64,000 nt of DNA from Myxococcota bacterium (lineage in GTDB: Bacteria > Myxococcota > XYA12-FULL-58-9 > JABJBS01). Position 1 is the stretch's first letter. Each line of letters begins with the position of its first letter. Below the pieces are notes generated by a model that saw only the letters and a program-made list of their open reading frames with translations, made no database searches and was not told where the DNA came from. Of this stretch, positions 31,406-48,367 are shown one piece after another. The position numbers and the translations under genes are program-made. The stretch is from the NCBI GenBank assembly GCA_036339465.1, contig JAYZAY010000064.1, positions 1 through 64,000 of the forward strand, read 5' to 3'.

Positions 31406-34400
31406 ATGGCAAAAAACGTTCTTGTTCTTAATGATGCCGACAACTCACTCGGTGAACTGATTCAGGCGCTGCAAAAGGCGGGCTATACAGCCTATTCTTC
31501 GGACAATGCGGACGCTTGCATTGATCTCTTCGATGAAATTAAGCCCAAAGCACTCTATATGAGCCTCTTAACCATTGGAGTACTCGATTCATTACAAGTC
31601 ATTCGCATGGATCCCGACGGTGCGAATATCACAATTGCCTTTCTAGGAACCGGCAAAGAAGGCATTAAGAATGACAAAGCAGCCAAAGCCCGTGGTGGCG
31701 ATGCATTCTACAAATTCCCCCCCGACATCAGTTCAATCCTAGGAGATACCCGAAAATGGATCGGTGCTGGAGAAAAAGACGCGCCCCTACCCACTCTATC
31801 TGGTGGTGAACCACCACTCGAAGAAGCACCTCCCCCAACAGAAGAAGCCGTAGAACCACCCCCTGAAGAAACCGGAGCAGAAGAGACCCTAGCAGAAGCT
31901 GCCGACCAGCTTCTTGAGGAAATCACCGAAGAGCTGCCCCCCGCCCCCGAGCCAGAGGACTCCACGGTTGCCAAAGCAACGGCCGAGTCAGCGCAAGAAG
32001 ACGAAATTGTCCCGCTCGCAGAAAAGATCCCCAAGTTAGAAGAGACACCCTCCGAAAAAAAACCTGGTGCTGAAGCTCCTTCGACAACAGATTCCTCGGC
32101 GACAGAAGACGCCGCAACAGTTTCACCAGCAACAGAAGACGCCGCACCGGACTCGCCAGTAACAGAAGACGCCGCACCAGACTCGACAGTAACAAAAGCC
32201 GCCGCACCGGACTCGACAGCAATAGATTCGCCAGCAACAGAAGACGCCGCACCAGACTCGACAGAAACAGATTCGACAGCAATAGATTCGCCAGCAATAG
32301 AAGACGCCGCACCAGAAACTAGCACAGAAAGCCCAGAGTCAACGTCTGCTACCGAAACGCCTCCAAGAGAGAGCGGCACTGCATCAACTGAAGGCACGCC
32401 CACAACAGAACCGAGCGCCCCCACCGAAACAGCGCCCAGCCCTAAAGCGGAAGCCCAAATCCAAGAGCTAAAAGAAAGACTTGAGAAGGTTCAAAACGAA
32501 CTGGGCGTTTTCAAACAGCTTGCAGAGGTCGCAGAACAAGACTTAACCTCTCAAAAAGAGCAAGTCGAAAAACTTATGGAGGACGTTTCAACTCTAGAAT
32601 CCGACAAAGCCTCCTTAGAAGAAAAACGAAAAGAAGAAGAAACCCTAAGGCAAGTGAGCCATGAAGCCCTCGAAGAGTCCAAGAAAGCATCAATCGCAAT
32701 CGCCGAACAATTAAATGATGAAACAAAACGACGTGAAGGACTCGAAAAAGAGCTCGAGAAATCAAATCAGGATATAGGAAAGCTGCGTTCGGAAATCTCC
32801 AACCTCCAGCAACATCAATCCCAACTAGAACATAGTCAGGCAAACACATCGGATTCCTTGAATAAACTAAGAAATTCGCTCGAAGAAGAGCAAGCTAGAG
32901 CCCAAAAATCCCAAAAAGATGCCGTGGATACAATTCACTTCCTCAAAGAAGAACGGGAGAAACTAACCCGAGAACTTGAAGACCTTCATCGCGACCTTAA
33001 TTCAAAAAATGACAGGTCGCGCCTCAGAGAACAACAATACTCGCTGGAAAGAGAAAAAATCATCACGGATATCCGTAAGCAAACCGAGGACAATATCCGA
33101 AATGAATTGGTACAACAGGCCCGGTACCGATCACTGTATAAAGAACTCCATCCAGAATGGGATGGCGCCCCCCCGGATGTCATTCTCAGTGACTGGAGAC
33201 AGGTAAAAACTGATATTTCTAGTCACAGACATTACGCCAATCCCGCTACCTCCAGTATGACCCCTCTTCACGGGGTCCCCCCTGTCCCTGGGCCATCACT
33301 CCCAGGACAACCGGAACGACACCCCAGGCCGGGTGACGAACTGACAGGCACTCAACTTAAAGCCCCCGTACCCAGCAACGGCCATCTAGATGGCCCCAAC
33401 GATATTGCATTGCTCTTCACCAAGTTTTGGTGGGAACAAATAACAGGTCGCATTGATTTCTTGCGCGGCTCGGAACAAAAAGTAATCTACCTCCAAAGCG
33501 GTAAACCTATCGATGCTTACTCAAATCAGCCCGGTGATTCCCTAGCTCATTACTTAATGCGTCGAGGCAAACTTTCAAGAAATCAATATTTACAAGCCCA
33601 ACCAATCCCGCCACGAGGCACCCGAACCCAAGCGGCCAGTCTAGCCGAAATGGGCCTACTCAAGCCCGAAGAACTGGTTGCATGCGTGTCTGATCACCTA
33701 CGGGAAATTGTTTGGTCACTTTTCAGCTGGGAAAGTGGTGAATTCACTTATTATTTCGAAAACCCAGATGGCTCGGAACTTAAGACAATTCCGGAAGATC
33801 CGCGAACCTTAATCCTCGAAGGTATTCGGAGAAAATATGAGTATCCAAGACAAACTGCGGTAATCGGCCCATCAAGTACGGTGATGAAGTGGGCATCGGG
33901 CCAACCCGGAACGGTACCGTGGCTACCCAGTCAATTTCAAGATGCCCGGATTTTAAAACGCTTTGACGGCAAGCACACACTCTCGGACATAGTACTGGAA
34001 ACCGGAATGCCCAGCGATATGATTTATCCGCTGGCAATCACGCTCTACACCCTTGGCACCCTCGAACTCAGAATCCGCGGTACAGAAACATCTCAAGTCA
34101 CCATGGACCCGAAAATTCAGTCTATGGAGTTCTCTCGTATCCAGAATAAGCTAGAGGAAATACGACAAGCCGATTATTTCACCATTTTAGGTTTAACCCC
34201 CAGAGCAACCCCATTTGAAATTGACGCAGCATTTCGTCAAGTAATGAATGACTTCTCCCCCACCGCCTTTACGCCCCAAACCAGCGAAAAAGAACAGGGC
34301 AGCATGGCTGAAATTAGCCGAGGTATTCACGAAGCCTATGAAGTCCTAAAAAATGACCGCCTACGGATGGCCTATGCCCGTAACCTCCCGGCCTCACAAC

Positions 34401-34414
34401 CCTCCCGCCATTAA
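31406..34414 (+). CDS. Multidomain protein: atypical receiver, acidic repeat linker, coiled coil, DUF4388-like, J-like domain
   Basis: N-terminal REC-like fold; heptad region; TGRIDF...IYLQSG...LFSWESGEF...LILEGIRR; DYFTILG...EAYEVL. Confidence 0.75.
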   Translation: MAKNVLVLNDADNSLGELIQALQKAGYTAYSSDNADACIDLFDEIKPKALYMSLLTIGVLDSLQVIRMDPDGANITIAFLGTGKEGIKNDKAAKARGGDAFYKFPPDISSILGDTRKWIGAGEKDAPLPTLSGGEPPLEEAPPPTEEAVEPPPEETGAEETLAEAADQLLEEITEELPPAPEPEDSTVAKATAESAQEDEIVPLAEKIPKLEETPSEKKPGAEAPSTTDSSATEDAATVSPATEDAAPDSPVTEDAAPDSTVTKAAAPDSTAIDSPATEDAAPDSTETDSTAIDSPAIEDAAPETSTESPESTSATETPPRESGTASTEGTPTTEPSAPTETAPSPKAEAQIQELKERLEKVQNELGVFKQLAEVAEQDLTSQKEQVEKLMEDVSTLESDKASLEEKRKEEETLRQVSHEALEESKKASIAIAEQLNDETKRREGLEKELEKSNQDIGKLRSEISNLQQHQSQLEHSQANTSDSLNKLRNSLEEEQARAQKSQKDAVDTIHFLKEEREKLTRELEDLHRDLNSKNDRSRLREQQYSLEREKIITDIRKQTEDNIRNELVQQARYRSLYKELHPEWDGAPPDVILSDWRQVKTDISSHRHYANPATSSMTPLHGVPPVPGPSLPGQPERHPRPGDELTGTQLKAPVPSNGHLDGPNDIALLFTKFWWEQITGRIDFLRGSEQKVIYLQSGKPIDAYSNQPGDSLAHYLMRRGKLSRNQYLQAQPIPPRGTRTQAASLAEMGLLKPEELVACVSDHLREIVWSLFSWESGEFTYYFENPDGSELKTIPEDPRTLILEGIRRKYEYPRQTAVIGPSSTVMKWASGQPGTVPWLPSQFQDARILKRFDGKHTLSDIVLETGMPSDMIYPLAITLYTLGTLELRIRGTETSQVTMDPKIQSMEFSRIQNKLEEIRQADYFTILGLTPRATPFEIDAAFRQVMNDFSPTAFTPQTSEKEQGSMAEISRGIHEAYEVLKNDRLRMAYARNLPASQPSRH
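32099..32316 (+). repeat. Coding 30-bp/15-bp modular tandem repeats (TEDAAPDSP)
   Basis: Recurring ACAGAAGACGCCGCACC(A/G)GACTCG and ACAGCAATAGATTCG. Confidence 0.85.
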
Positions 34415-34515
34415 GTTTGGCGTCGACTTTTCACCAAAAAACGCTGAAGATATAAGGAGAACTTGACGCACTTAGCCGATGGTGTCATGGCGGTCGTTAA
34501 AGGAGTTTGCTAATC

Positions 34516-35100
34516 ATGGCGATACGAAAAATTTGTATTTGGCCGGATCCTGCCCTCGCAGAGATTGCACAGCCCGTCACACAGTTTGATTCAGAGCTTA
34601 AAACACTCGTCTTAGATCTGTTTGATACCATGTATGAAGCGAACGGGGTCGGTTTGGCCGCAACCCAGGTGGCCGTGAATTTAAGGGTGCTCGTAATCGA
34701 CCTGGACCCCAATAACTCGGCCGAGGACGACCCAGAAGTTCAAGAGGAACTTGAGTCATTTAATTACAACGGCCCAAAAGAATTTATCAACCCTGAAATC
34801 CGACGAAAAGAGGGTAGTCTTACCTGGGAAGAAGGTTGCCTCTCGGTCCCCGGCTATACCGACAAAGTCGAACGAGCAGAACATGTAACCGTGCGCGCCC
34901 AAAACCGAGAAGGCGAAACATTTGAACTGGCTGCTTCTGGACTCTACGCCGTAGCCATTCAACATGAAATGGACCATCTCGTGGGTAAGGTTTTCGTGGA
35001 ATATTCCTCCCGAATGAAACGCGACATGGCCAGGAAGAAAATGGTCAGACTGAAAAGCTCGGGCATCGATGACGGCGTGGTCGCCGCCGCCAACCTTTAA
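34516..35100 (+). CDS. def: Peptide deformylase
   Basis: GVGLAATQ, EGCLSVP, QHEMDH. Confidence 0.97.
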   Translation: MAIRKICIWPDPALAEIAQPVTQFDSELKTLVLDLFDTMYEANGVGLAATQVAVNLRVLVIDLDPNNSAEDDPEVQEELESFNYNGPKEFINPEIRRKEGSLTWEEGCLSVPGYTDKVERAEHVTVRAQNREGETFELAASGLYAVAIQHEMDHLVGKVFVEYSSRMKRDMARKKMVRLKSSGIDDGVVAAANL

Positions 35101-35146
35101 ATTCAATTACCGACCACACAACTCAATCACAGGAATTCCTAAGTCC

Positions 35147-36109
35147 ATGAGTGCACCATTCCGAATGATAATGATGGGTTCACCTGATTTTGCCGTGCCC
35201 ACCCTGAGAGAAATCTTAAAAGACCCCACAAAATTTGAAGTGATTTTAGTTATCACCCAACCAGACAAAAAGGCTGGTCGCGGCCGAAAAGTGTTGCCCT
35301 GCCCCATGGCCAAATTCGGCGAGAGTAAGGACTTGGTGGTCGCTAAGCCCAAGACCCTAAGAAACAAGGACTTCCAAGAAGAGCTCAGGCAACTCAATCC
35401 CGACTTTATCGTTGTGGCAGCCTACGGTAAAATACTACCCCAAGAAGTTTTGAGTATACCAAAATTTGGCTGCATAAATGTTCACGCATCCCTCCTCCCT
35501 CAATACCGGGGTGCATCCCCAGTCGCCCACGCAATTCTAGGGGGAGATTCAACCACTGGTGTCTCCATCATGGGGATGACTGAAGGCTTGGATGAAGGGC
35601 CCATCTTTGCAACAAACACGTGCAAAATCACGGACAACCATACCCGGATTTCTCTCACCCAAGAACTCGCAGAAATAGGCGCAAACCTACTTACCGACAC
35701 CCTTCCCGCCATAGCCAATGGTACTCTTCAAGGAATACCTCAACCCGAACATGGTTCCAGCTACGCCCGAAAAATCGACAAGCCCGATGGCCTCCTAGAT
35801 TTCTCGAAGTCGGCCGTTGATTTAGAGCGTCAAATCAGAGCCTTCAACCCTTGGCCTGGTACCTTCACCTTCCTCAAGAACCAGAGAGTGAGAATCCATG
35901 CCGCAACCACTTCTAGTACCCAACACCCAGAACGGCCGGGTCACGTATACGCAATAGATAAAGCCGGTATCAGTGTAACCTGTGGTTTCGGCTCACTAAA
36001 CATTACTCAAATCCAACCAGAAGGAAAGAAAAACATGGATGCATCCTCCTGGGTAGCGGGACGAGGAATTGCCGTTGGAAACTGCTTCGGTATGACGGCC
36101 GACGCATAA
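35147..36109 (+). CDS. fmt: Methionyl-tRNA formyltransferase
   Basis: MGSPDFA, TQPD, INVHASLLPQYRGASP; follows def. Confidence 0.97.
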   Translation: MSAPFRMIMMGSPDFAVPTLREILKDPTKFEVILVITQPDKKAGRGRKVLPCPMAKFGESKDLVVAKPKTLRNKDFQEELRQLNPDFIVVAAYGKILPQEVLSIPKFGCINVHASLLPQYRGASPVAHAILGGDSTTGVSIMGMTEGLDEGPIFATNTCKITDNHTRISLTQELAEIGANLLTDTLPAIANGTLQGIPQPEHGSSYARKIDKPDGLLDFSKSAVDLERQIRAFNPWPGTFTFLKNQRVRIHAATTSSTQHPERPGHVYAIDKAGISVTCGFGSLNITQIQPEGKKNMDASSWVAGRGIAVGNCFGMTADA

Positions 36110-36210: not shown

Positions 36211-36540
36211 ATGAGTGACTCTGATTTAAAAACATTTAAAATTGGTGATACCCATCAACCGACGGTTGCTGCCTCTGCTTCCCATCGGGCATCACAAGCC
36301 GCAAAAGGGAAGCCAACCGTGGGCTTCCCTAGACTCGAAAAGCTATTGGAAACGGAAACGGCCGAAACCGTCGACACAAAAATGAACGCAATCTTAACCA
36401 ATTTGGGCAATTTAGAATCCCAAGCCGACAGCCCCAAAGAAAAAGCGTGCGCTAAAAGAGCGACAGCAGCAGTATCTCAAGCCCATGAAATGCTTATATT
36501 TCTTTACGAAACCAAAAGCCTGGTGACACCCGGTGGCTGA
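36211..36540 (+). CDS. Small helical protein, candidate YscE-like needle co-chaperone
   Basis: Helix-hairpin pattern RLEKLL...NAILTNL...AVSQAHEML; directly before the needle-like gene. Confidence 0.5.
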   Translation: MSDSDLKTFKIGDTHQPTVAASASHRASQAAKGKPTVGFPRLEKLLETETAETVDTKMNAILTNLGNLESQADSPKEKACAKRATAAVSQAHEMLIFLYETKSLVTPGG

Positions 36541-36652
36541 AAAAAGTCAAAGCCCCTGTATTTTTTAACCGAAAGCCTTCGGGCTTGCTAATGTCACTAC
36601 GAGCGACGAAAATTCAACAAAGCTCAAAGAACTGAAACCACGGAGTTTTGCA

Positions 36653-37132
36653 ATGACAAACATTAAGAACAATTCAATAGGCAACCAAGTAGACGTCAAC
36701 AAAAGCCGTGCTCGACAAACACAGAATGCATCAAAGAGCTTTGCTTCAGCAGTAGCCAATACAACTGCGGGGGTAGCACGCTCTGTGGGTGCCGTGGTAC
36801 CTGGAGGCTCTATCTTAACTGCTGCAGCTAGTTCCATTCAAAACTCTGTCGGTTCACCTAACGCACGAAATGTAAGCTTGGCTGGAACAACTACAACATC
36901 CTCAACCAATGACACATTTTCCGCAGTCAACGAGCTCGCTGCAAGCGGCGACTCTTCTGCCACAATGTTTAACGCTACCAAAGAGCTACAAGAACTCAAC
37001 CAGCAATTTAACCTAGAATATTTGAATCTCCAGCAAGAAATGCAGGGAGAAAACCGAAAATTCAGTGCTATTTCTAACGTCATGAAAACCAAGCATGACA
37101 CTGCCAAGGGTATGATTCAGAACGTACGATAA
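36653..37132 (+). CDS. Candidate T3SS needle/filament subunit (SctF-like)
   Basis: C-terminus YLNLQQEMQ...FSAISNVMKTKHDTAKGMIQNVR resembles PrgI/YscF C-terminal helices; Ser/Ala/Thr-rich N-terminus. Confidence 0.6.
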   Translation: MTNIKNNSIGNQVDVNKSRARQTQNASKSFASAVANTTAGVARSVGAVVPGGSILTAAASSIQNSVGSPNARNVSLAGTTTTSSTNDTFSAVNELAASGDSSATMFNATKELQELNQQFNLEYLNLQQEMQGENRKFSAISNVMKTKHDTAKGMIQNVR

Positions 37133-37158
37133 TGCCAAACAGTGTACGTCGCTCACTC

Positions 37159-37202
37159 CAAACGCCGCAGGTCGCTCATGCCACCTGCGGCGTTTGTGTT
37201 TT
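37159..37202 (+). terminator. Rho-independent terminator-like hairpin
   Basis: CAAACGCCGCAGGT-N10-ACCTGCGGCGTTTG followed by TGTTTT. Confidence 0.75.
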
Positions 37203-37282
37203 AACGGTACCTGTTTTAAAATTCTCCTGAGACCGCTAACGCATCGACCAGTGAACTGGCCCCGACGTAAGGACTAATTTAA

Positions 37283-37705
37283 ATGACAGATACGATATCG
37301 GATATAATTCAAGGAATAGTTCCCATCGAGCAAAAAGACCTAAGTCTACTTCTGGAGATAGGTTATTTCTACCTGGAGTTACAGAAGTTTAAAGAAGCGG
37401 AGGAAATTTTTAATGGAGTCGCAGCTTTGATCCCTCACAGCGAAATCCCGCACATAGCCTTGGGACATCTTTATTTTTCCCAAGGTCACTTCAACCCCGC
37501 ACTCAAAGCCAATAAAGCAGCCGTTCTGCTCAATACAGAGTCCGCGCCGGCCCACGCAGCTGTTGGAGAAGTCCTCTTCTTCCTAAAAAAACCGGACGAC
37601 GCAGTGACCGCGCTCAATAAAGCAATCCAATGTTCACCAGAAAGCCCTGCCGCAGAATTCGCTCAAGCGTTGCTTCACGCGAATGAAGTCGGCGTATTTG
37701 GTTAA
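37283..37705 (+). CDS. TPR T3SS chaperone (YscG/CdsG-like candidate)
   Basis: Three TPRs; LLLEIGY...EAEEIFNGV..LIPHSEIPHIALG. Confidence 0.75.
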   Translation: MTDTISDIIQGIVPIEQKDLSLLLEIGYFYLELQKFKEAEEIFNGVAALIPHSEIPHIALGHLYFSQGHFNPALKANKAAVLLNTESAPAHAAVGEVLFFLKKPDDAVTALNKAIQCSPESPAAEFAQALLHANEVGVFG

Positions 37706-37725: not shown

Positions 37726-38199
37726 ATGACAAAGGTTGGGGGCGGACCCAAGCCGCCGGTTCAAGTACCCATTCATGAACAAACGGGTAAAGCAGAGGAG
37801 CAAAAAGAGACAGCTAAAGGAGACGCTAAGGGGGCCCAAGTTCAGCGAGACCGATTCGAGGCATCTCGCTCTCCCCTAGCAAATCGCCTCCAAGCTCTCC
37901 AAGCACAACGGGGGACGGCCAAGCTACAATTCAGTAACGCTGAAATGGCCGAGTTGGTGAAAACTTTCGGCGCGATCCTTAAACAGAACCCACAAGCAGA
38001 CCGAAAAAAGAGAGCAAAATTGTTCGCGGAAGCATTGCTCAAGAAAAAGAAGAAATTTAAGAAATTCTTCAGTTCTGCTGCAGAACAAGATCTCGAAAAC
38101 CTCTTTGATGCCATAGCCGAGCAACTAGAGAGTTCACCTGTCTTTGCGCAGTTGGTTGACGACGTATCCGAAGAGTCCATTAAATTCGCAGGGAGTTGA
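37726..38199 (+). CDS. Hypothetical T3SS-associated protein
   Basis: AAGGAG SD; disordered N-terminus, helical C-terminus; stop 4 bp before the sigma gene. Confidence 0.7.
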   Translation: MTKVGGGPKPPVQVPIHEQTGKAEEQKETAKGDAKGAQVQRDRFEASRSPLANRLQALQAQRGTAKLQFSNAEMAELVKTFGAILKQNPQADRKKRAKLFAEALLKKKKKFKKFFSSAAEQDLENLFDAIAEQLESSPVFAQLVDDVSEESIKFAGS

Positions 38200-38203
38200 T
38201 ATC

Positions 38204-38956
38204 ATGAGTGGTTCACCCAGCTCCAATGCTCCAAGTAAAACAACCCAAGGCAAAGGGGCCAAAAAGAACATGGATTTCACCAATTCAAGGGCTGTGGTAG
38301 AGCAATACACTCCCTATGTTCGGTCAATCGCCACCAAAGCAAGCAGAAATCTTCCACCCGACATCGAACTTGATGACTTGGTCGGATATGGAATGGTCGG
38401 ACTTCTCGAAGCAGCCCAGCGATTCGATCCAGAAGCGGGTGCCAATTTCATGACATTTGCGTTCTACAGAATCAGGGGGGCCGTGTATGATGGCCTTCGT
38501 AGCATGGGTTGGATGAGCCGCACAGAATACGCCAAGGCCAGATTCGAAGAACGAGCCAACGAATATTTGGCCGCACTTGCCTTTGCCGAGGAAACAGGGG
38601 CTCAGGCTCCCGAAAATCCATTTGAAATTGCAGTGGAAGATTTGGCGGCGGCTGTTGAGGGTCTTGCTGCGGTATACCTTACCGCCATCGACGGAACGGA
38701 AGGACTCCAACTCGAAGATGATAAGAATCCCAAACCAGATGAGAAACTTGGACTTGAGCAAGCTCGATCTCTGGTTAGAAAGACAATTTCTAAGCTTGGT
38801 GGCCAAGAACGAACCCTAATGGAACTCTACTATTACAGTGAAATGAGTCTGCAAGAAGTCGGTGAAAAACTCGGACTCTCTAAAAGCTGGACAAGTCGGT
38901 TGCATAAACGAGTTATCGAAAAACTAAGACGGATATTGGATGACGAATTAGGCTAA
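38204..38956 (+). CDS. FliA/WhiG-family sigma factor
   Basis: DDLVGYGMVGLLEAAQRFDP, FAFYRIRGAVYDGLR, region 4 MSLQEVGEKLGLSKSWTSRLH; GGGAG SD. Confidence 0.92.
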   Translation: MSGSPSSNAPSKTTQGKGAKKNMDFTNSRAVVEQYTPYVRSIATKASRNLPPDIELDDLVGYGMVGLLEAAQRFDPEAGANFMTFAFYRIRGAVYDGLRSMGWMSRTEYAKARFEERANEYLAALAFAEETGAQAPENPFEIAVEDLAAAVEGLAAVYLTAIDGTEGLQLEDDKNPKPDEKLGLEQARSLVRKTISKLGGQERTLMELYYYSEMSLQEVGEKLGLSKSWTSRLHKRVIEKLRRILDDELG

Positions 38957-39082: not shown

Positions 39083-39580
39083 ATGGACCCCGTCGGTGGT
39101 GGAATAGGCAAAGCAGCTGCGGCGCTTATGAAAGAAATGCAGCAGGTACAACAACAAGCCGAGCAAATGCAGGAAGCTCAACAAACACAGCAAGTTGACA
39201 GTGCACAATTTCAGCAAGCCATGCAAGATCAACAGGGCCCAGAGAACGTAAATAAGACCAACGCGGTACAACCCACTCCCCAAGGCTCAAGTATTCTCTC
39301 TCAAGTACACGCTTCAGGGGCCAGTCCCTCCCAAGCAATTGGGCAAACCGAAAGAGTCGAAAAGACTCAAGTTGCTCAAATGCTTGAAGGTTTAGCAGAT
39401 GGGCAGCAAGAGATGAATAACATCATGGAAAAAGCTCTATCTGGCGATAAACTATCAAGCCAAGAACTCCTCGCCATGCAAGCTAAGATTTACCGATTTA
39501 CCCAAGAAATGGAGATCACATCTAAAGTTGTCGAAAAGAGTACCAGTGGCCTCAAGCAAACCATGAACACTCAGGTTTAA
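39083..39580 (+). CDS. T3SS inner rod-like protein (SctI/HrpB2-like)
   Basis: C-terminus LSSQELLAMQ...EITSKVVEKSTSGLKQTMNTQV; directly upstream of sctJ. Confidence 0.7.
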   Translation: MDPVGGGIGKAAAALMKEMQQVQQQAEQMQEAQQTQQVDSAQFQQAMQDQQGPENVNKTNAVQPTPQGSSILSQVHASGASPSQAIGQTERVEKTQVAQMLEGLADGQQEMNNIMEKALSGDKLSSQELLAMQAKIYRFTQEMEITSKVVEKSTSGLKQTMNTQV

Positions 39581-39704: not shown

Positions 39705-40610
39705 ATGGGACTAAAGATAATGCGACCAAAGCGACTTAGCCAAAAGATCAAGAATCGGAATCATTACTTATCAAGACTCACCCTGCTCCTGGGCGCCATG
39801 ACATTCTCCACTGCGTGTGCGCCAGAAACCATTATTCATGACATCGGTGAACGAGAAGCAAATACGATTCTTGAGCTCCTAGCCGACCACGATATTCAAG
39901 CAAATAAACTAATGAAGAGCGATGGCCGAACAACCAAATTTGACGTCCTAGTCAATTCAGATAAAGCTATGAGCTCTATTAGACTGCTCAATCAATACGA
40001 ATTACCAAGACGTGCTGACAAAGGCTACGCTGACGTCTTTGGGGAAGGTGGCCTCATCCCTACGTCATCAGAAGAAAAAGCCAAAGAACTGGCCGCGCTC
40101 GAAGGTGAAATTCAAAAGCAACTCAAATTGGTGGATGGTATCCTCGATACCGAAGTCAATCTGGTCATCCCTGAAAACAATCCACTGCGTAACAACGAAG
40201 AGCAACAACCTACCCCCACCGCAAGTTTGACCATCCGATACCTACCGGGTAAAGGCGGAAGTAAACCCATCACGGAACAACAAGTTCAGGTGCTTGTATC
40301 TGCGGCTGTCGAAAATCTAAGTGCGGACAAAGTCTTTCCGCTCATGACCCCTGTCACCATCGGCTACAAAACAGAAGGACTAAGGGATGATCGCGATTCA
40401 GTAAAAGGCTCATGGATAGGGCGACTCGATAAAAAGACAGTGAACATTTTAACCATCCTAATCACCGTATTATTCGTCGTACTCGCAAGTCTACTTGTCG
40501 TTTCCCAATTACGACTAAATAACGTCCGCGGTCGCTTGCTCCGACTCCAAAACGAAATCGCCAATGCACGGAAAAGACAGTCCGGGGACAGCCTGCCCCC
40601 AGCCAGCTGA
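39705..40610 (+). CDS. sctJ: T3SS inner-membrane ring lipoprotein
   Basis: Lipobox FSTAC; EREANTI; LIPTSSEEK; PTASL; C-terminal TM. Confidence 0.88.
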   Translation: MGLKIMRPKRLSQKIKNRNHYLSRLTLLLGAMTFSTACAPETIIHDIGEREANTILELLADHDIQANKLMKSDGRTTKFDVLVNSDKAMSSIRLLNQYELPRRADKGYADVFGEGGLIPTSSEEKAKELAALEGEIQKQLKLVDGILDTEVNLVIPENNPLRNNEEQQPTPTASLTIRYLPGKGGSKPITEQQVQVLVSAAVENLSADKVFPLMTPVTIGYKTEGLRDDRDSVKGSWIGRLDKKTVNILTILITVLFVVLASLLVVSQLRLNNVRGRLLRLQNEIANARKRQSGDSLPPAS

Positions 40611-40633: not shown

Positions 40634-41677
40634 GTGCACCCGTTTTTCCATCCACTAACTCCCTATGAAACCATGCAACTCCTGACCTCTTTGGCTGTTG
40701 CTGGTCCCGAGGCTGTAGAACTTTTACGTTTTATCCCCGAGGAACAAAGAGAACGAATCAACGAAAAAGCAACGTCACTGCTCAAACTTGAAGGTGAAAA
40801 ACGGATCCCGTTTGTCGTCTCGCAGCTCAAAGAACTCTTAAGTGGAGACAATATCGGCTTCGACAAAATCGAGCCAAGCTGGATTTTGGATGAATTACTG
40901 GAAGAAGAACCTATTTCTATCGGAATTCTCCTTATAACCCTGCCACCAAACACCACCAAAATCTGTATCAAGATGCTCCCAGATACAATTCGTGAACAAC
41001 TTCCACCAAGATCTGCCGTCATCGAAACCCCGCCCCTGGTTCAAAAAGCAGCACTTCGACAATTCGAATCGCGCTTTACCCCAATGCCTTGTTTTGGCGC
41101 TTTGAGAGAGTTTCAGTTCCAAGACCTCCTCCGATTAGAAAGTTCCGATTGGCATCAACTTTTAAACGTTATTGGTAAAGTCGAGGTCGGTCAGGCATTC
41201 GTGTCAGTAGGTAAAATGGCTTTGGTTGATTTCTGCCGACAGCTTTCAGCCACAGACGCAGAAAATCTGCTCGCAACGGTCAAACGACACCCAGAAATGA
41301 CCCCTGAAGAAATCAAAACCGGACAAAGATTTCTCTCCCGAATTGCTGGCTCCTTTAAGGCAATGGATGAACTCTTTTCGTGTGCGAGTTTGTGGCGTCT
41401 TGCCAAAGCCACCTATGGAGAACCGAAACGATTCACCCAACAAATAGCCCTGCGAATACCGAGAAAGTGGGGAATCCAATACCTAGACTATCTCGAGAAA
41501 ATACCAGAAATGGATGACCTAAACCCCCAAGATTTTTTAAACTATCAGGATTCAATCCTCATTGAGCTCATTCATCTAATCCATAACCAAGCCATCAATT
41601 TTCAAATGGGAAAAGCAAATATTGTGATGAATACGCCCGATCGCTACAAGAATGCCAGTACTGCGAATGACAATTAA
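40634..41677 (+). CDS. SctK-position protein with FliG-like middle and C-terminal motifs
   Basis: EEEPISIGILLITLPP resembles FliG EHPQTIALILSYL; FQFQDLLRL resembles FTFEDL; lies between sctJ and sctL. Confidence 0.6.
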   Translation: MHPFFHPLTPYETMQLLTSLAVAGPEAVELLRFIPEEQRERINEKATSLLKLEGEKRIPFVVSQLKELLSGDNIGFDKIEPSWILDELLEEEPISIGILLITLPPNTTKICIKMLPDTIREQLPPRSAVIETPPLVQKAALRQFESRFTPMPCFGALREFQFQDLLRLESSDWHQLLNVIGKVEVGQAFVSVGKMALVDFCRQLSATDAENLLATVKRHPEMTPEEIKTGQRFLSRIAGSFKAMDELFSCASLWRLAKATYGEPKRFTQQIALRIPRKWGIQYLDYLEKIPEMDDLNPQDFLNYQDSILIELIHLIHNQAINFQMGKANIVMNTPDRYKNASTANDN

Positions 41678-41722: not shown

Positions 41723-42385
41723 ATGGGAAAAGTAATTAAAAAAGGAATCGGAGACGACACAGGGTTTCAGGACCTCGTTTCCACCGATGAACCAACACGG
41801 CGAGCACCAATCATCGAGCGCGCTACAGTCGAAGCAAAAGATGAAGCTTCCGAAATTATAACGAAAGCCAAAAGTGAAGCCGAACAAATCATTCAAGCGG
41901 CAGAAGAAAAAGCAAAACACCTTGAGGCAGAAGCCCATGAACGCGGTTTTTCTGAAGGCAAAGAAGAAGGGGCATCCCAGTTACTCGAAACCGTAACCAA
42001 AGCCAGTAAGAGGATCCAGCAGACCGAAGACGCTCTTTCCAAAAACATTAAGGATCTGGCGATTGGCATAGCCAAAAAGATCTTGGGTCAAGAGCTACAA
42101 TCAAATCCTGATGCTGTGGTGGCACTTGTTAAACAAGCCCTCACCGACAAGGCGAGACAACGTAAAGAAATCAGCTTACGAATAAATCCAGAGGATTTGG
42201 AACACATCCGATCCAGTAGAAGCGAACTTCTTGAAGTATTAAGCCGTTGCCGCGAAATCTCAATTAGGGAGGATCCAGACGTAGCGCGGTTTGGAGTCAT
42301 TATAGAAACAGAAGCGGGTACCATTGATGCCCAATTAGAAACTCAGCTAGAGGCAATTCAAAATGTTCTCAGAGCGATGCCCTAA
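41723..42385 (+). CDS. sctL: T3SS stator (SctL/FliH)
   Basis: AxxxA repeats, ERGFSEGKEEG, LRINPED, IIETEAGTIDA. Confidence 0.9.
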   Translation: MGKVIKKGIGDDTGFQDLVSTDEPTRRAPIIERATVEAKDEASEIITKAKSEAEQIIQAAEEKAKHLEAEAHERGFSEGKEEGASQLLETVTKASKRIQQTEDALSKNIKDLAIGIAKKILGQELQSNPDAVVALVKQALTDKARQRKEISLRINPEDLEHIRSSRSELLEVLSRCREISIREDPDVARFGVIIETEAGTIDAQLETQLEAIQNVLRAMP

Positions 42386-42400
42386 AGCCGAGAACAAAAA

Positions 42401-43741
42401 ATGAGTGACGGAGCACCTATCATCGACATTAATCAATATCTCCAAGCGATCGAACAAGCCGAAACGGTTTCTGTTCGGGGCCGAGTTCTAGAGGTTACTG
42501 GACTGGTTATTAAGGCCCTGATCCCCGGAGTCCGAATTGGTGAAATGTGTTACGTCGATACGGGAATCGGCAATAGAATCGTCTGTGAAGTCGTCGGATT
42601 TCAAGACGAAAATGTGATGCTCATGCCCCTTGGGGAAGCACACGGTATTGGCCCAGACAGCGAAGTTTTAGCTACAGGAAGACCTTTCTCAGTTCGATGT
42701 GGTTGGGGCCTCCTAGGACGCGTTCTAGATGGCTTAGGACGACCTATTGATGGTGGCCCTGCCCTAGATGACCTTCCCGATCTCGTGGATTGGCCGGTGG
42801 AACGTGAAGCCCCAGACCCCATGAAACGAATGCGAATTACCGAGAGTATCGCCATGGGAGTTAGAGCCATCGACGGACTTTTAACCGTCGGTCTAGGCCA
42901 AAGAGTTGGGCTTTTTGCCGGTTCCGGGGTTGGCAAATCGACTCTCATGGGCCAGATCGCCAGAAATACTGAAGCTGAAGTTGTTGTCGTCTGTCTCATT
43001 GGTGAGCGGGGTCGTGAAGTAAGAGACTTTATAGAAGAATCCCTAGGCGATGAGGGTCTCCGAAAGGCGGTTCTAATTGTGGCGACCTCAAATACCCCCT
43101 CCTTGGTTCGCTTAAAGAGCGCTTTTATTTCCACCGCAATTGCCGAATGGTTTAGGGATCAGGGAAAGAAAGTTCTCTTTATGATGGACAGCTCAACCCG
43201 ATTTGCACGTGCTCAACGCGAAATAGGTCTAGCCATAGGAGAGCCACCCGCCCGGCAAGGCTATCCACCGAGCGTATTTTTTCAGATCCCTAGGCTCATG
43301 GAACGCACCGGTAACAATGAGACGGGTTCAATCACGGCCCTCTATACCATTTTGGTTCAAGGCGGAGATATGGAGGAACCTATCGCTGATGAAGTGCGCG
43401 GTATCCTAGACGGCCATATTATCCTTAATCGAGAGCTGGGCGCACGAAACCACTGGCCCGCTATCGATATACTGCCTTCTCTTTCCAGAGTCATGAATGG
43501 AGTTGCCGGTGACCAACACAAAGCGGCGGCCGCCAAGTTACGAGAAGTACTAGCAACCTACGAAAAACAGCGGGATCTTATTCTCCTCGGAGCATACCAA
43601 TACGGTACAGACACAAAAACAGATTATGCCATCGACAAAATCGAAGAAGTCGAAGCATTCCTTAGACAAGGCATGCTTGAATGCGACGATTTTGAAACAA
43701 CCGTTCATAAGCTAGCCAGCATGTTCACAGACGTAATGTAG
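42401..43741 (+). CDS. sctN: T3SS ATPase (SctN/FliI)
   Basis: GSGVGKS, IGERGREV, GEPPARQGYPPS, GSITALYT, LDGHI. Confidence 0.96.
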   Translation: MSDGAPIIDINQYLQAIEQAETVSVRGRVLEVTGLVIKALIPGVRIGEMCYVDTGIGNRIVCEVVGFQDENVMLMPLGEAHGIGPDSEVLATGRPFSVRCGWGLLGRVLDGLGRPIDGGPALDDLPDLVDWPVEREAPDPMKRMRITESIAMGVRAIDGLLTVGLGQRVGLFAGSGVGKSTLMGQIARNTEAEVVVVCLIGERGREVRDFIEESLGDEGLRKAVLIVATSNTPSLVRLKSAFISTAIAEWFRDQGKKVLFMMDSSTRFARAQREIGLAIGEPPARQGYPPSVFFQIPRLMERTGNNETGSITALYTILVQGGDMEEPIADEVRGILDGHIILNRELGARNHWPAIDILPSLSRVMNGVAGDQHKAAAAKLREVLATYEKQRDLILLGAYQYGTDTKTDYAIDKIEEVEAFLRQGMLECDDFETTVHKLASMFTDVM

Positions 43742-43760: not shown

Positions 43761-44255
43761 ATGGCCAAAAAACAAGAATATCGACTACAAGCGCTATTGG
43801 AAATCCGGAAACGCACCAAAGAGGACAAAGAACAAGAACTCGGTCAGTGCCTACAACGTTTGGAGACAGAAAAAGACAGCCTCGCCGGAATGAAGAAAAA
43901 ATTAGAGGAAATGCTCCAAGACCGCGAACGAAGAGCAAAAGAATACGCCGATAAGCAGATGCGTGGCGAGATGAGCGCCCAAGCAATGACCGGAGCCCAA
44001 TCTTACCTGAAAAGACTGAAAGAGAGTGAGGCCATCCAAGAAGAACTTATTCGAGATCAAGAATCGGTGATTCGCCAAAGGCAAGATGAAGTTCAAGCAG
44101 CAAGAGAAATACTCTTAGAAGCAACCCAAGAACTAAAAAGCCTAGAGAAACACAAGGAAAAATGGGAAAAAAAGGTCAAGAAAGAAAGACAAGCCAAGGA
44201 AGAACAAGAGCAAGAACAATTGGCACAGGCTATCTTTTTAAATAGGGAGAAATAA
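43761..44255 (+). CDS. sctO: T3SS stalk (SctO/FliJ-like)
   Basis: YRLQALLEIR start, long coiled coil, directly after the ATPase. Confidence 0.8.
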   Translation: MAKKQEYRLQALLEIRKRTKEDKEQELGQCLQRLETEKDSLAGMKKKLEEMLQDRERRAKEYADKQMRGEMSAQAMTGAQSYLKRLKESEAIQEELIRDQESVIRQRQDEVQAAREILLEATQELKSLEKHKEKWEKKVKKERQAKEEQEQEQLAQAIFLNREK

Positions 44256-44320: not shown

Positions 44321-44406
44321 AAAACAAATCTTCTAACCCGTGACCCCACCAAACGATAATGTGATTAAGGCTGCCTGCCAAGGTAAGTACAAGGAGCCCA
44401 CCTATT

Positions 44407-45249
44407 ATGAGCGACCGAGTCCAAGACCGCCGTGAAGCACAAATAACAGAGCAAAAACGCCTGGAAAAGGAAACATCGAAAAAAGACACACAGAAGTCTT
44501 CAGACCGAAAATTCTCACAGACAATGAAAAATGCTGCCTCCGAAACCACAACCAGATCAAACCAACCTCCAAGTACAAATCGCCCTAAAGGGGCAGCCAG
44601 CAAGAATAGCAGCGCGCAAGCGCTCGCAGCGCGCAAGGGAATTGCTTCGCAAAAATTCAGTGACACTCTCTTTGGAACAGGAGAGAAAAACCTAAATTAC
44701 TCCAAAGACTTAAGTAGCAACAGGGCCGAGCAAAAAGATCAAGAAAGACTCGAATTCAACGATTCGAAGCAACAAGACTCCGTTAAGGAGCTGAACGAGA
44801 ATGACCCACTGGCCGCAATAAGTGAGAGGCAAAGTCAATCAGGACAGGGGGGCAGTTTCGGGCAACCCCACGACGAGGGCCACCAACCTGAGACAGGTAG
44901 CCTAGACACAATCGATAACATAGGAAATCCGTCTGGCACCAAAAACGTGAAGCAAAGTCAGGGCGCTGGCCAAGCAGGTCAAATCCCACCCGCTATCCTT
45001 GAAAAACTCGTCAACCAAGTAATGGCCGGTGTGGATGAAATAGGCCAACCCCAATTCATCATCGAACTTAACCAAGAAACTTTGCAGGGTGCAAGAATCG
45101 AGATCAAACGGGCTGAAGACGGCATCGAGATAATATTCACGAGTCCTCACAAAGATATCCAAAACCTGATTAAATCAAATGAAAATCGACTACATCGAGC
45201 ATTTCACCACCGCGGGCTCAACCTTAATAAAGTCTCTGTGAGTAGCTAA
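44407..45249 (+). CDS. Ruler protein (SctP/FliK-like)
   Basis: Disordered polar N-terminus; C-terminal FliK_C-like FIIELNQETLQGARIEI...LHRAFHHRGLNL; follows sctO. Confidence 0.75.
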   Translation: MSDRVQDRREAQITEQKRLEKETSKKDTQKSSDRKFSQTMKNAASETTTRSNQPPSTNRPKGAASKNSSAQALAARKGIASQKFSDTLFGTGEKNLNYSKDLSSNRAEQKDQERLEFNDSKQQDSVKELNENDPLAAISERQSQSGQGGSFGQPHDEGHQPETGSLDTIDNIGNPSGTKNVKQSQGAGQAGQIPPAILEKLVNQVMAGVDEIGQPQFIIELNQETLQGARIEIKRAEDGIEIIFTSPHKDIQNLIKSNENRLHRAFHHRGLNLNKVSVSS

Positions 45250-45389: not shown

Positions 45390-46649
45390 ATGGATTCGGT
45401 TAGAGCCTACCAATTCCATAATCTCCCCAAATACAATCGCCTTGAAGCGGGATTACTCGAAACATCTAGCGTGTTTCTTTCTAATAATCTTTTTGGACCA
45501 AGCCTCCTCCAAGCAATCCAAAGCAAGCTGGGTGAACTTGTCCGAACCTCCGTCCAACTTACAAACTCCCCTCCAACCCTACTTAAAGGCACCGAAGTCA
45601 GCCAGTTACTACCGGAACAAGGCTGCTTCATGCATTTACAGTGCAACCCTACGACTGAGCGGATCCTAGTGGACATTGATGCCGGTTTGGCACTGGGGTG
45701 GATCGATGCAATGTTCGGTGCCCAAGTCAAAATAACCCCTGTACAACGACCACTTAACGAAATCGAAAGAGGAGCATTCTCGTACATCATTCTAAATGTT
45801 CTAGCTGAAATTCATTCCGGTTGGTCGCACGGACCGCAATTGTCCCTGAGCTTAATGGAGACGTTCAGTTCTCGAAAAAACGCCATGACCACGTTAGACC
45901 TAAACGGAAACCATTTCCACCTAGGAATCACCATCGCTTTTGCCAAAAGCCTTGGCTATATTCGGCTATTTGTGCCCACAAGCTTGATGTCGGAACTTGC
46001 AACTTGGGCCTTACTGGATCAGGTCTCTCATGATTCACTCAGCTTTCGAAGAAAACGAGCTGCGATGCTTCATGATCTAGATTGTAAAGCGCGCTGTGAA
46101 ATTGCTCGGATTGGCCTAAGTATTGAGGAGCTAAAAAACTTGGAACGTGGGGATATTATTATCCCCGAAGACCATGGCATTAGTCTTGGTCCTAACGGAC
46201 CATCCGGAGACCTGCAAATTAGACTGGGGCGAGGTCAAAACGGCTACCTCCAGACCCAATTAATTCCAGATTCCGGACAATTAAAATGTGCCATTCAATC
46301 GATCATTATACATGAACAACCCAATGAGGTTCCCATGGACGAAGACCAAATATTAAACGAAACAAACGGTGAAATGGTGGAAAACCCTGCCCACAACGAC
46401 AATCTAGAGCAAACCGAGGGACTTCTTAATGATATCCAATCTCCCGTAGTCGTTGAGCTAGGCCGACTCAATTTGAATGCGGGTCAGGTGATTCGCCTCA
46501 AGGAAGGACAAATTCTTCGCCTCCCTCGAGCCGCCACTGATCCGGTCGATCTCGTCGTCAATGGTCGCGTCTTCGCCCGGGGGCAACTTGTGGAAGTCGA
46601 GGGAGAGCTGGGTGTTCGAATCCTTCAGCTCGCTGGCTCTCAATCCTAA
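45390..46649 (+). CDS. sctQ: T3SS sorting-platform/C-ring protein (SctQ, FliM/FliN-like)
   Basis: RPLNEIERG; two SPOA domains (LERGDII; VVVELGR...VDLVVNG...GELGVRI). Confidence 0.9.
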   Translation: MDSVRAYQFHNLPKYNRLEAGLLETSSVFLSNNLFGPSLLQAIQSKLGELVRTSVQLTNSPPTLLKGTEVSQLLPEQGCFMHLQCNPTTERILVDIDAGLALGWIDAMFGAQVKITPVQRPLNEIERGAFSYIILNVLAEIHSGWSHGPQLSLSLMETFSSRKNAMTTLDLNGNHFHLGITIAFAKSLGYIRLFVPTSLMSELATWALLDQVSHDSLSFRRKRAAMLHDLDCKARCEIARIGLSIEELKNLERGDIIIPEDHGISLGPNGPSGDLQIRLGRGQNGYLQTQLIPDSGQLKCAIQSIIIHEQPNEVPMDEDQILNETNGEMVENPAHNDNLEQTEGLLNDIQSPVVVELGRLNLNAGQVIRLKEGQILRLPRAATDPVDLVVNGRVFARGQLVEVEGELGVRILQLAGSQS

Positions 46650-46667
46650 ATACCCCAGGAACCATTC

Positions 46668-47264
46668 ATGAAAACATTGGTGCTTGCCCTAGGGCTCATC
46701 ATGGGAACGCTGGCAGGGCCTGCTTCCTCTACTGAAGCAGTGAAGTCTCCTAAAGTCCTCTCTAAGGGCGAAAAGGCCACATCACCAAATATTGCCCCTA
46801 AGGCACCAAGTGGAAAACCAGACCAGTCACCTGCTCCAGCACCGAGCCCACCCCCAAGTTCTTACGACATATCCAAAGAAAATGCCGGACAGGTCTCTAA
46901 AGCCAATGAAGAAACTGATAATGATTTTGGTACCGCTCTTTTGAAGATGATTATTTCCCTTGGGGCGGTCCTGGCTTTGCTCATCATCATCGGCAGGGTT
47001 TTTCGGGGGAAATTAAAGTACTTTGGCTTCCCCGGCCAAACAAACGACATGAAATTGTTGACTCGCTTACCACTGGATAGCAAACACGTCCTTTTCGTGG
47101 TTGAAGTGGGTTCCAAGAACAAGTTACTTCTTGGCGGCGGTAACGGAAGCCTTTCTTTATTGAGAGAGTTCTCTTCAGAAGAAACCGACAGGTTGGCTTC
47201 CTCAGAGCCCGTTCAGGCAAACATCGAAACGGGATCACTACATCCTCGTGTAAAGGAAGCATAG
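46668..47264 (+). CDS. FliO-like export-gate assembly protein
   Basis: TM LLKMIISLGAVLALLII, then MKLLTRLPLDSKHVLFVVEVG...LLLG...LSLL; sits before sctR. Confidence 0.78.
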   Translation: MKTLVLALGLIMGTLAGPASSTEAVKSPKVLSKGEKATSPNIAPKAPSGKPDQSPAPAPSPPPSSYDISKENAGQVSKANEETDNDFGTALLKMIISLGAVLALLIIIGRVFRGKLKYFGFPGQTNDMKLLTRLPLDSKHVLFVVEVGSKNKLLLGGGNGSLSLLREFSSEETDRLASSEPVQANIETGSLHPRVKEA

Positions 47265-47270
47265 GCTATT

Positions 47271-48065
47271 ATGAAACGACTCTGGAACACGATGAACTGG
47301 GCAATAGCCTTGACAATGCTGCACTGGATGGACGCTGCACCCGCCTTGGCTGTGAAAAAGGGGGCTGACGCCCTCGGCTCAAATAGCCTTGCGAATCGAC
47401 CCTTAATTCTTCTAACCGCCCTAGCCGGCCTCGCTCTCGTACCATTTGTTCTAATAATGGTCACTTCGTTCGTAAAAATTGCGGTGGTGCTCTCCATCGT
47501 GAGACAGGCCGTGGGAACTCAGCAAATCCCTCCAACGCAAGTCATTACCGGGTTGGGAATCGTTCTTACCGTCTACATTATGATGCCAGTGGGACTGGAA
47601 GTCTATCACAACGCCCAGGAGAGAATGCTTCAGGAATCGCCCAAGGGCGAAAGTATGAAAATGAGCGACCTTACGGTGCAACAAGCTCTAGACCTCGCCA
47701 AGGAGGCAGAAGGCCCAATGAAAGGTTTTCTGGTAAAACATGCCCATTTGAAAGATCGGGACATGTTCTACAAACTCGCTTGGAGAATGAGAAAACCGCG
47801 AGATAGAGCAACGCTTTCCGACCAAGATTGGGCCATCATTATTCCTGCCTTCGTCATCAGTGAACTCAAGGAAGCCTTTCAAATTGGGTTCATTCTATTC
47901 GTCCCGTTCTTGGTGGTCGACATGGTCGTCGCCAACATACTTATGGCCCTGGGTATGCAGATGCTCTCGCCAACAACGATATCCCTCCCATTCAAAATCC
48001 TCTTATTCGTAATGGTCGATGGATGGTACCTAATAACCAAGGGCCTTGTGATAGGATATCAGTGA
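47271..48065 (+). CDS. sctR: Export gate SctR/FliP
   Basis: MVTSFVKIAVVL, QQIPP, PAFVISELKEAFQIG, ISLPFKILLF. Confidence 0.96.
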   Translation: MKRLWNTMNWAIALTMLHWMDAAPALAVKKGADALGSNSLANRPLILLTALAGLALVPFVLIMVTSFVKIAVVLSIVRQAVGTQQIPPTQVITGLGIVLTVYIMMPVGLEVYHNAQERMLQESPKGESMKMSDLTVQQALDLAKEAEGPMKGFLVKHAHLKDRDMFYKLAWRMRKPRDRATLSDQDWAIIIPAFVISELKEAFQIGFILFVPFLVVDMVVANILMALGMQMLSPTTISLPFKILLFVMVDGWYLITKGLVIGYQ

Positions 48066-48072
48066 GGAACAT

Positions 48073-48351
48073 ATGGACCAGGAAGTCATAGAGTTTATCA
48101 TTCGAATTACCAACGAAGCCCTATTGATGATTATCGTGGTTTGCGGACCGCCCATTCTTCTTAGTATGATCGTGGGGCTCTTAATTTCACTCTTTCAAGC
48201 GGTTACCCAACTTCAAGAACAGACCCTCACCTTCGTCCCTAAGATGATCGTTATCTTCGGGGTTCTCGCTGCTCTGGGACCTTGGCTTGGGGGAACACTT
48301 TTGACCTTTGCGCAAAAGTGCTTCTCCGAATTCCCAAAATACTTATTTTGA
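48073..48351 (+). CDS. sctS: Export gate SctS/FliQ
   Basis: FQAVTQLQEQTLTFVPK. Confidence 0.96.
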   Translation: MDQEVIEFIIRITNEALLMIIVVCGPPILLSMIVGLLISLFQAVTQLQEQTLTFVPKMIVIFGVLAALGPWLGGTLLTFAQKCFSEFPKYLF

Positions 48352-48367
48352 TACTACGACGAAGCGC

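Follow-up and report, generated by a model that had tools for sequence, protein, structure and literature searches.

A candidate needle-like subunit and its predicted TPR chaperone in a secretin-less type III secretion cluster of a Myxococcota bacterium

Type III secretion systems (T3SS) of the myxobacterial kind are described as having no secretin, no needle homologue and no translocon (PMC3459982, PMC10849154, PMC10433427, PMC12075869). Abby and Rocha 2012 state that SctF, if present, should have surfaced in their searches, and infer a filament in the common ancestor that was lost in the Myxo group (PMC3459982). The M. xanthus system is reported to be required for prey lysis, with no known effector (PMC12075869, PMC10849154, PMC10433427). 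Reviews and primary papers on myxobacterial predation and injectisome origins state that this T3SS type is without a needle homologue, and models of prey lysis rest on that statement; in one example, the tips of Tad pili substitute for the missing needle. Here we describe a 64,000-nt stretch of DNA (the window; NCBI GenBank assembly GCA_036339465.1, contig JAYZAY010000064.1, positions 1 to 64,000 of the forward strand) from a Myxococcota bacterium that encodes a T3SS of this type. At the head of the cluster lies a gene, here called the F gene, for a 159-residue protein (F159) whose C-terminus resembles that of the SctF needle subunits.

The T3SS in the window is of the secretin-less, flagellum-like, myxobacterial type (the 'Myxo' non-flagellar T3SS, NF-T3SS), with a FliO and a FliM-like SctQ. 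A first-pass annotation, made from the sequence alone, had placed the locus in a T3SS type often described as needle-less; the papers agree with this, and the genome carries no T3SS secretin. That genome comprises 4.17 Mb in 102 contigs and is 92.8% complete, and it contains no match above cut-off to PF09392 (Pfam T3SS_needle_F), i.e., no canonical needle gene was found in it. Its SctN ATPase shares 53-54% identity with AscN, YscN and the SctN of a Desulfovibrio plasmid, and 66.5% with the SctN of a second genome of the same phylum (G252, a single contig of 9.0 Mb), with which the cluster order is shared. The sole FHIPEP (SctV) gene lies on another contig (G000:C59:3664-5811, minus strand). 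Its neighbours there are housekeeping genes, among them those for a ribosomal protein, PP2C and a tRNA pseudouridine synthase, which puts it outside the T3SS cluster.

The C-terminus of F159 and the needle family

We read F159 as probably a long SctF superfamily protein that has diverged strongly and that, with a predicted TPR (tetratricopeptide repeat) chaperone, may serve as the filament subunit of a secretin-less T3SS. The protein ends in ...YLNLQQEMQGENRKFSAISNVMKTKHDTAKGMIQNVR, and its last 21 residues align without gaps to those of MxiH (from a Shigella plasmid record) with 9 identities and the same terminal R in both. In a background of 1,208 stop-to-stop frames (minimum length 50 aa) taken from the window, from loci of its own genome and from the E. 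coli flg locus, F159 was the sole frame to reach 9 identities (the runner-up had 5). The first-pass annotation had reported three open reading frames (ORFs), a needle-like C-terminus and a strong hairpin, and all three are present, as judged by their coordinates, by the 9/21 identity to MxiH and by the folding score given below. It had also described a low-complexity N-terminal extension. This description fits a variable G/S/T-rich linker; it does not fit residues ~20-62 ahead of that linker, which carry the family-conserved motifs R-Q-T-P..F-G and A-A-P-F-x-P-G-G-A-V-x-S-A-A.

Comparison of alignment profiles (hhalign) linked this end of the protein to needles. On the F159 side we used the close F159 family (A1) and a 41-member family alignment that includes a bridging family (A2). 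On the needle side we used 14 needle proteins (A3), made up of MxiH, AscF, a Desulfovibrio needle and 9 relatives carrying PF09392, together with two needle-sized proteins of this phylum. A2 matched A3 with a probability of 96.3% (E 1.5e-9), and F159 residues 103-159 paired with needle columns 31-87 of 87, i.e., through the final residue; A1 matched A3 at E 1.6e-7. Because A2 and A3 each hold sequences able to inflate the score, we reran the comparisons with a strict set of 12 proteins that have PF09392 or a needle annotation. Against these, E was 1.9e-6 for A2 (score 40.3), 1e-4 for A2 without the bridging family (score 31.0) and 8e-4 for A1 (score 26.2). Reversed A3 scored 14.5 and 30 column shuffles at most 17.6 (mean 11.3), against 31-57 for real comparisons.

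The bridging family consists of 144-149-aa proteins from the same phylum that have the N-terminal architecture of F159 (hhalign 94.2%, E 1.1e-7, F159 residues 4-68) and C-termini that score 25.0-28.1 bits on PF09392, slightly under its cut-off of 29.4. A PDB profile search with A2 placed 7y6c_F, a 43-residue chain from a T3SS needle/co-chaperone entry, first of 177,635 sequences (E 0.35), aligned at the extreme C-terminus (query positions 139-176 of 177). In the ESM Atlas, where matches stayed below the 0.9 bar throughout, the top cluster (0.88; 47 aa) had PF09392 on 19% of its members, and a true needle cluster ranked 9 (0.84).

As judged from these profiles, the likeness of the F159 family is specific for needles over SctI, flagellar rod proteins and YscX. 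A2 showed no likeness to SctI (P 0.58 against AscI plus MxiI; P 0.35 against the window-type SctI family), and gave P 0.36 against E. coli rod/hook C-termini, E 0.076 against AscX and E 0.38 against the Desulfovibrio YscX-position protein. It is well supported by the sequence comparisons that the last 40-57 residues of F159 are homologous to the needle C-terminal helix and end at the same terminal residue. In needles, this helix lines the lumen and drives polymerisation. The earlier SctF-like assignment is upheld by the controlled profile-profile comparison, the bridging family, the top PDB profile match and the gene order.

Gene order and the TPR partner

The F gene is in the sctF position, ahead of sctI-sctJ. 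Searches with F159 returned 60 related proteins at E<=0.01, and 389 at E<=1e-5 when started from the G252 homologue. None of the relatives has a precomputed Pfam domain, and those with names are called hypothetical, except for one FliE and one nitrous oxide reductase label (JGI). We scanned one genome per species, took the best 80 of 145 relatives and identified their neighbours by tblastn with the window proteins. The order E-F-TPR-X-sigma-SctI-SctJ, as in the window and often with def-fmt ahead, was found at 34 of the 80 loci. Another 19, including those of cultured Anaeromyxobacter species, had the order F-SctI-SctJ-...-SctQRSTU, and there was no T3SS neighbour at the other 27. The same F-I-J order is found in prgI-prgJ-prgK and mxiH-mxiI-mxiJ, and the Desulfovibrio plasmid has the order hypothetical gene-needle-TPR-hypothetical gene-sctJ. 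In G252, genes for an E-like protein, a 201-aa F-like protein, a TPR protein (40% identical), a 128-aa protein, a sigma factor and SctI follow one another as in the window. The A2 profile had matches at E<=1e-5 in 335 of the 401 genomes sampled from the phylum (a sample that includes one genome flagged unpublished), in 274 of the 316 high-quality genomes and in 164 of the 172 in the largest family.

Needle-like ends recur in other proteins of the phylum. Many proteins of 72-511 aa end in this way (12-31 bits on PF09392; loci L094-L119, L126 and L099), and the window's own genome has 527- and 599-aa open frames with such an end (G000:C1:68061-68213 and G000:C3:24785-24946, both minus strand). 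In two genomes, needle-ended larger proteins stand directly after LcrH-type genes 3' of sctU, the usual translocator place. In G252, several LcrH-type genes lie 3' of sctU, and so does the gene of a 251-aa protein with a C-terminal score of 25.8 bits on PF09392.

A three-TPR gene flanks the F gene, as had been noted in the first pass. Its product resembles T3SS TPR chaperones in general, as far as family profiles indicate: by hhalign, the TPR family matched a TPR gene in the yscY position of the Desulfovibrio plasmid (E 3.7e-8), the TPR gene adjoining the Desulfovibrio needle gene (E 4.8e-6), AcrH (E 7e-5) and AscY (E 2.7e-4). The best T3SS-specific NCBIfam match was SctY (E 4.5e-9; 36.8 bits, cut-off 70), and SctY, LcrH and CdsG were all below cut-off (CdsG with 16.2 bits, cut-off 170). 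The family did not match AscG (E 0.32), and membership of YscG/PscG/CdsG by sequence failed.

PscG and YscG enclose the C-terminal helix of their needle subunits. We modelled the TPR protein together with F159 residues 86-159 and E109, the product of the small gene ahead of F, with one alignment per chain and only the F chain scored. The models had ipSAE values of 0.86, 0.82 and 0.79, against 0.01 for the best of 3 controls, and the ipSAE mark is one passed by 116 of 157 solved complexes and by 2 of 215 mismatched pairs. For the partner, pLDDT did not fall below 68, and contact agreement was 62% or higher; the contacts lie between TPR residues 7-138 and F residues 126-159. The modelling supports a TPR protein predicted to enclose the conserved C-terminal helix of F159. 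Of the YscE-F-G-like trio that had been proposed, the YscG-like member stands as a predicted needle-helix-binding TPR protein (ipSAE 0.82) and not as a member of that family.

The E109 family is conserved upstream of F in 22 loci. By hhalign, E109 has no likeness to AscE (E 0.24) or to its 69-aa Desulfovibrio counterpart (E 0.18), and in the complex model it touches F with a single residue (41). 'YscE-like' is therefore a positional label for E109: its size and position fit, its sequence does not, and of the three-protein complex that had been suggested the model supports the contact between the TPR protein and F. The features of the cluster are collected in Table 1.

Table 1. Features of the T3SS cluster, with positions in the 64,000-nt window
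Feature	Position	Strand	Basis or remark
DUF4388 protein with C-terminal DnaJ (1002 aa), then def and fmt; precede the E-F module	31406-36109		
E109, small protein of 109 aa; opens the module, yscE position	36211-36540	+	no Pfam or NCBIfam family
Degenerate copy of promoter-like motif, TAAC-N16-TGCTAA	36566-36591	+	consensus GCAAC-N16-CGATAA
F159, long SctF-like protein (159 aa)	36653-37132	+	N-terminal motifs, G/S/T-rich linker, C-terminal helix ~101-159
GC-rich hairpin followed by U-run, intrinsic-terminator-like	37159-37205	+	folding z -6.04
Three-TPR protein (140 aa), predicted chaperone of the F159 C-terminal helix	37283-37705	+	Pfam TPR_1 E 4.8e-11
157-aa conserved protein without known family, between TPR and sigma genes	37726-38199	+	11 related loci
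FliA/WhiG-family sigma factor	38204-38956	+	Pfam Sigma70_r2 and r4; NCBIfam TIGR02479 E 4.7e-47
SctI-like inner rod protein	39083-39580	+	Pfam T3SS_basalb_I E 6e-4; NCBIfam SctI E 0.004; both below cut-off
SctJ inner-membrane ring lipoprotein	39705-40610	+	Pfam YscJ_FliF E 7.6e-17; NCBIfam SctJ E 7.9e-35, below cut-off
347-aa protein in the SctK position	40634-41677	+	weak FliG_C (E 0.04) and fliG (E 0.12)
SctL	41723-42385	+	
SctN ATPase	42401-43741	+	
SctO	43761-44255	+	
FliK-like SctP, ruler candidate	44407-45249	+	Pfam Flg_hook E 7e-6, below cut-off
SctQ (FliM-like N-terminus), FliO-like protein, SctR, SctS, SctT, SctU	45390-50314	+	
LcrH/SycD-type TPR chaperone	50828-51331	+	NCBIfam TIGR02552 E 2.6e-26; 91.9 bits, cut-off 104.8

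The SctP-like ruler and the inner rod reported in the first pass are both there, as matches below cut-off. For the SctI-like protein the scores were 20.6 bits (cut-off 32.4) in Pfam and 17.1 bits (cut-off 39) in NCBIfam; its family matched AscI plus MxiI by hhalign (P 3.8e-4), and its position ahead of sctJ fits. The likelier start of the sigma gene is the ATG at 38204, over the TTG at 38144 of the listed ORF, and the factor scores slightly below the TIGR02479 cut-off (160.6 against 189.6 bits). The weak FliG_C/fliG likeness of the gene in the SctK position is possibly another flagellum-like trait of the system. At least part of the upstream run (def and fmt, in many cases accompanied by the DnaJ protein) also lies upstream of F in 15 related loci.

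Transcription signals around the F gene

After the stop codon of the F gene, positions 37133-37215 fold at -39.8 kcal/mol (0 of 200 shuffles were as stable), with a 14-bp GC-rich stem and a U-run 3' of it. On the upstream side, we found the motif GCAAC-N16-CGATAA on the coding strand, 49-140 nt ahead of the F gene, in 30 of the 45 related loci with enough DNA upstream of F (motif loci within L015-L061). In the rest of these loci, CGATAA, which forms the core of the -10 element of sigma-28 promoters, has a background of 0.02 per 180 nt. All 30 motif-bearing loci belong to the type with a sigma gene, and the motif was found in 0 of 11 loci of the Anaeromyxobacter type. Taken together, the motif in relatives, the FliA/WhiG sigma gene within the cluster and the terminator that follows F suggest separate transcription of F. 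By analogy with flagellin, this suggests that the F gene may be a sigma-controlled, strongly expressed gene for a late subunit.

The window's genome as a whole contains 38 exact copies of the motif and 6 of the reversed pattern, and a copy with one mismatch lies at 44334-44359, just upstream of the SctP-like gene. Scanning the window with up to 2 mismatches gave 61 copies where 59 were expected, i.e., no enrichment, and no common theme emerged among the ORFs that follow 11 exact genomic sites (6 were without a Pfam family). A FlgM-like anti-sigma role for the 157-aa protein encoded between the TPR and sigma genes is conceivable.

Possible traces of expression come from short Logan contigs of public marine libraries, which carry no level, ends or strand and may include carried-over DNA. 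Two RNA libraries from two studies, X3 and X5, cover 36966-37108 and 36891-37108 at 100% identity, in the 3' half of the F159 gene; an X6 contig covers 37657-37947, and one from X1 (possibly DNA) covers 36216-36722.

Alternative readings and known systems

If F159 is a filament subunit, the TPR protein would hold it monomeric in the cytoplasm until it is exported through SctRSTUV. Exported subunits would then stack on the SctI-like rod, with the FliK-like SctP setting the length. The filament would be short and, without a secretin, would either stay in the periplasm or pass through another outer-membrane conduit. In most relatives, F would be expressed as a late subunit from its own GCAAC-N16-CGATAA promoter.

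Several results weigh against this reading. F159 is about twice as long as a needle subunit, and nothing like the N-terminal helix of needles is detectable in its N-terminal part. It scores 12.8 bits on PF09392 (E 0.53 in the genome search; cut-off 29.4), has no Pfam match in hmmscan up to E 1 and belongs to no NCBIfam family. Among 33 members of the family, only 2 hit PF09392 (best E 0.2), and searches of PDB chains with the single sequence or the A1 profile returned nothing below E 0.96, which is chance level. Alignment to AscF alone is insignificant (hhalign E 0.056-0.1), and the strongest hhalign values rest on the two sub-threshold same-phylum sequences in A3 or on the bridging family in A2.

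The fold models point the same way. Two AlphaFold2 models, of F159 with A1 and of a short-linker homologue of the Anaeromyxobacter type with a further alignment (A6), had pLDDT of 59 and 63 and pTM of 0.22 and 0.26. A 58-residue C-terminal helix (101-158) was confident (pLDDT ~80), and neither model contained a confident helix-turn-helix hairpin. The N-terminal helices were of low confidence and pTM was low, and the needle-defining hairpin fold is therefore only a candidate for F159. The Foldseek search proposed in the first pass as a check of the needle fold found no PDB match to the first model at E<=0.001. As needle-chaperone complexes (PscE-F-G, YscE-F-G) have been solved, the success of the complex prediction may partly be memory. 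At the level of the genome, the only secretin is PilQ, inside pilMNOPQ, with no T3SS secretin found in this 92.8%-complete assembly. SctD was not identified in the window, and a PF16697 search gave 16 generic FHA-type matches, all elsewhere. Finally, the window's copy of the promoter-like motif is degenerate, with 3 of its 10 specified bases off consensus.

The alternative that survives best holds that F159 is exported by the T3SS and keeps a needle-derived helix without polymerising, either as a cap, plug, adaptor or effector docked on the export gate or rod or as a secreted peptide whose conserved helix would work outside the cell, and that the TPR protein is an ordinary substrate chaperone. 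It draws on the loci without T3SS neighbours, which also weigh against a filament subunit. In about 20 of the 27, the encoded protein has 140-190 aa and a Sec-type signal peptide (14 found by a crude script and 6 by eye). In these orphans the signal, lipobox-like in one case, is followed by a helical region and then by a C-terminal domain 60-70% identical to that of F159. At one locus (L086), and in one protein from the F159 search (P0046), the domain follows instead a leader of Nif11 type that terminates in GG (Pfam Nif11 E 4.6e-4); leaders of this kind, like Sec signals, are typical of exported peptides. The titles of the orphan records (loci L036, L038, L044, L050, L066, L070, L072, L077, L081, L086 and L088-L091, each with the match near 5600-6350) name Acidobacteriota, Aminicenantes, Armatimonadota and other phyla, and two of the records are complete chromosomes. 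Pfam searches of 47 ORFs at 9 orphan loci (47 of the 88 listed, with antisense frames left out) revealed nothing shared between neighbourhoods, and only 2 of the 5 orphan-bearing genomes searched yielded FHIPEP. The orphans matched needles by hhalign at E 1.9e-5 for A3 and 0.09 for the 12-needle set. From its sequence context, the C-terminal domain appears able to work outside a T3SS and need not act within one. Since the domain is found in loci without a T3SS, we keep a non-polymerising exported protein as a sizeable, though unlikely, rival.

Other observations lean in the same direction: the domain ends many larger proteins of the phylum (233-511 aa), some encoded right after LcrH-type chaperone genes; the AlphaFold2 models are without a hairpin; the TPR family is nearer to SctY-/LcrH-type chaperones than to AscG; and the related T3SS of M. 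xanthus, for which no effector is known, is reported in the literature cited above to be necessary for lysing prey. Against a non-polymerising role stand the sctF position ahead of sctI-sctJ at 19 of the 80 loci and the place at the cluster head at 34 more. F is also near-universal and usually present once per cluster, unlike variable effectors, and its extreme conservation and exact C-terminal end fit a lattice-forming helix. The ruler and rod genes would otherwise measure nothing.

It is very improbable that F159 and the TPR protein are the counterpart of YscX-YscY, an early exported substrate and its TPR chaperone, in place of YscF-YscG. SctY is the top T3SS-specific NCBIfam match of the TPR protein, and its family aligns most strongly with the Desulfovibrio gene in the yscY position; such TPR-to-TPR scores are generic, the F family resembles needle proteins and neither AscX nor the Desulfovibrio YscX-position protein, and the genes do not adjoin sctV. 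A chance resemblance between short polar helices, with no ancestry among axial proteins, would fit the short matched region and the insignificance of all single-sequence tests, and is already disfavoured as highly unlikely by the far lower scores of reversed and shuffled controls, by a level of C-terminal identity that F159 alone reached among the background frames, by the specificity of the match for needles over SctI, rod proteins and YscX, and by the conserved synteny.

Taking F159 as a filament subunit, we tentatively put the observations together as follows, in a combined account that is possible and remains doubtful as a whole. The 'needle-less' T3SS would assemble a chaperoned, probably periplasmic filament from a long SctF paralogue, whose expression would be flagellin-like under the FliA-type sigma factor of the cluster, perhaps with an exported anti-sigma factor. 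On this account, the filament and the flagellar late-gene checkpoint would both have been retained in the earliest injectisome branch. Sec- and Nif11-exported proteins of other phyla would have taken up the polymerisation helix, perhaps to build self-assembling fibres or to act as decoys for filaments of this sort.

For the models of prey lysis outlined above, a conserved candidate subunit with a predicted chaperone offers a concrete gene, and the F159 family is relevant to the question of a filament in the ancestral injectisome. Our literature search on myxobacterial SctF, SctI and T3SS needle protein, with supplementary files outside its scope, found no paper proposing such a gene. The SctF superfamily itself is known; what is new here is best read, from sequence, as a long, divergent needle-like gene in a T3SS type called needle-less.

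Set beside the SctF needles (MxiH, PrgI, YscF/AscF, SsaG; PF09392), F159 likewise has a C-terminal helix with the same end, in the motif SN..K...D.....IQN.R, a gene ahead of sctI-sctJ and a TPR partner predicted to bind its helix. Those needles are hairpins of ~72-95 aa, whereas F159 has 159 aa with N-terminal motifs of its own and a linker, falls below the Pfam threshold, has no hairpin in its models and belongs to a host system without a secretin. The YscE-F-G and PscE-F-G modules have the same order of small protein, subunit and TPR protein, and the TPR protein here is likewise predicted to wrap the C-terminal helix of the subunit; by sequence it falls outside YscG/CdsG, and the small protein is unlike YscE. 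In the control of flagellin by sigma-28 (FliA) with its FlgM checkpoint, the parallels are a FliA/WhiG sigma gene in the cluster, a terminator after the subunit gene and, in relatives of the F gene, an own promoter with a CGATAA -10 element. The GCAAC -35 of that motif differs from the sigma-28 consensus, and a FlgM counterpart is at most conceivable here. Another close system is the myxobacterial T3SS* (MXAN_2434-2464; the 'Myxo' NF-T3SS), which shares with the window the absence of a secretin, FliO, FliM-like features and LcrH-type chaperones. G252, from the same phylum, has the gene order of the window, and the M. xanthus cluster was compared through the descriptions in the papers. Those papers state no needle homologue for this system, whereas the window, with its sctV outside the cluster, has a candidate for one at the cluster head.

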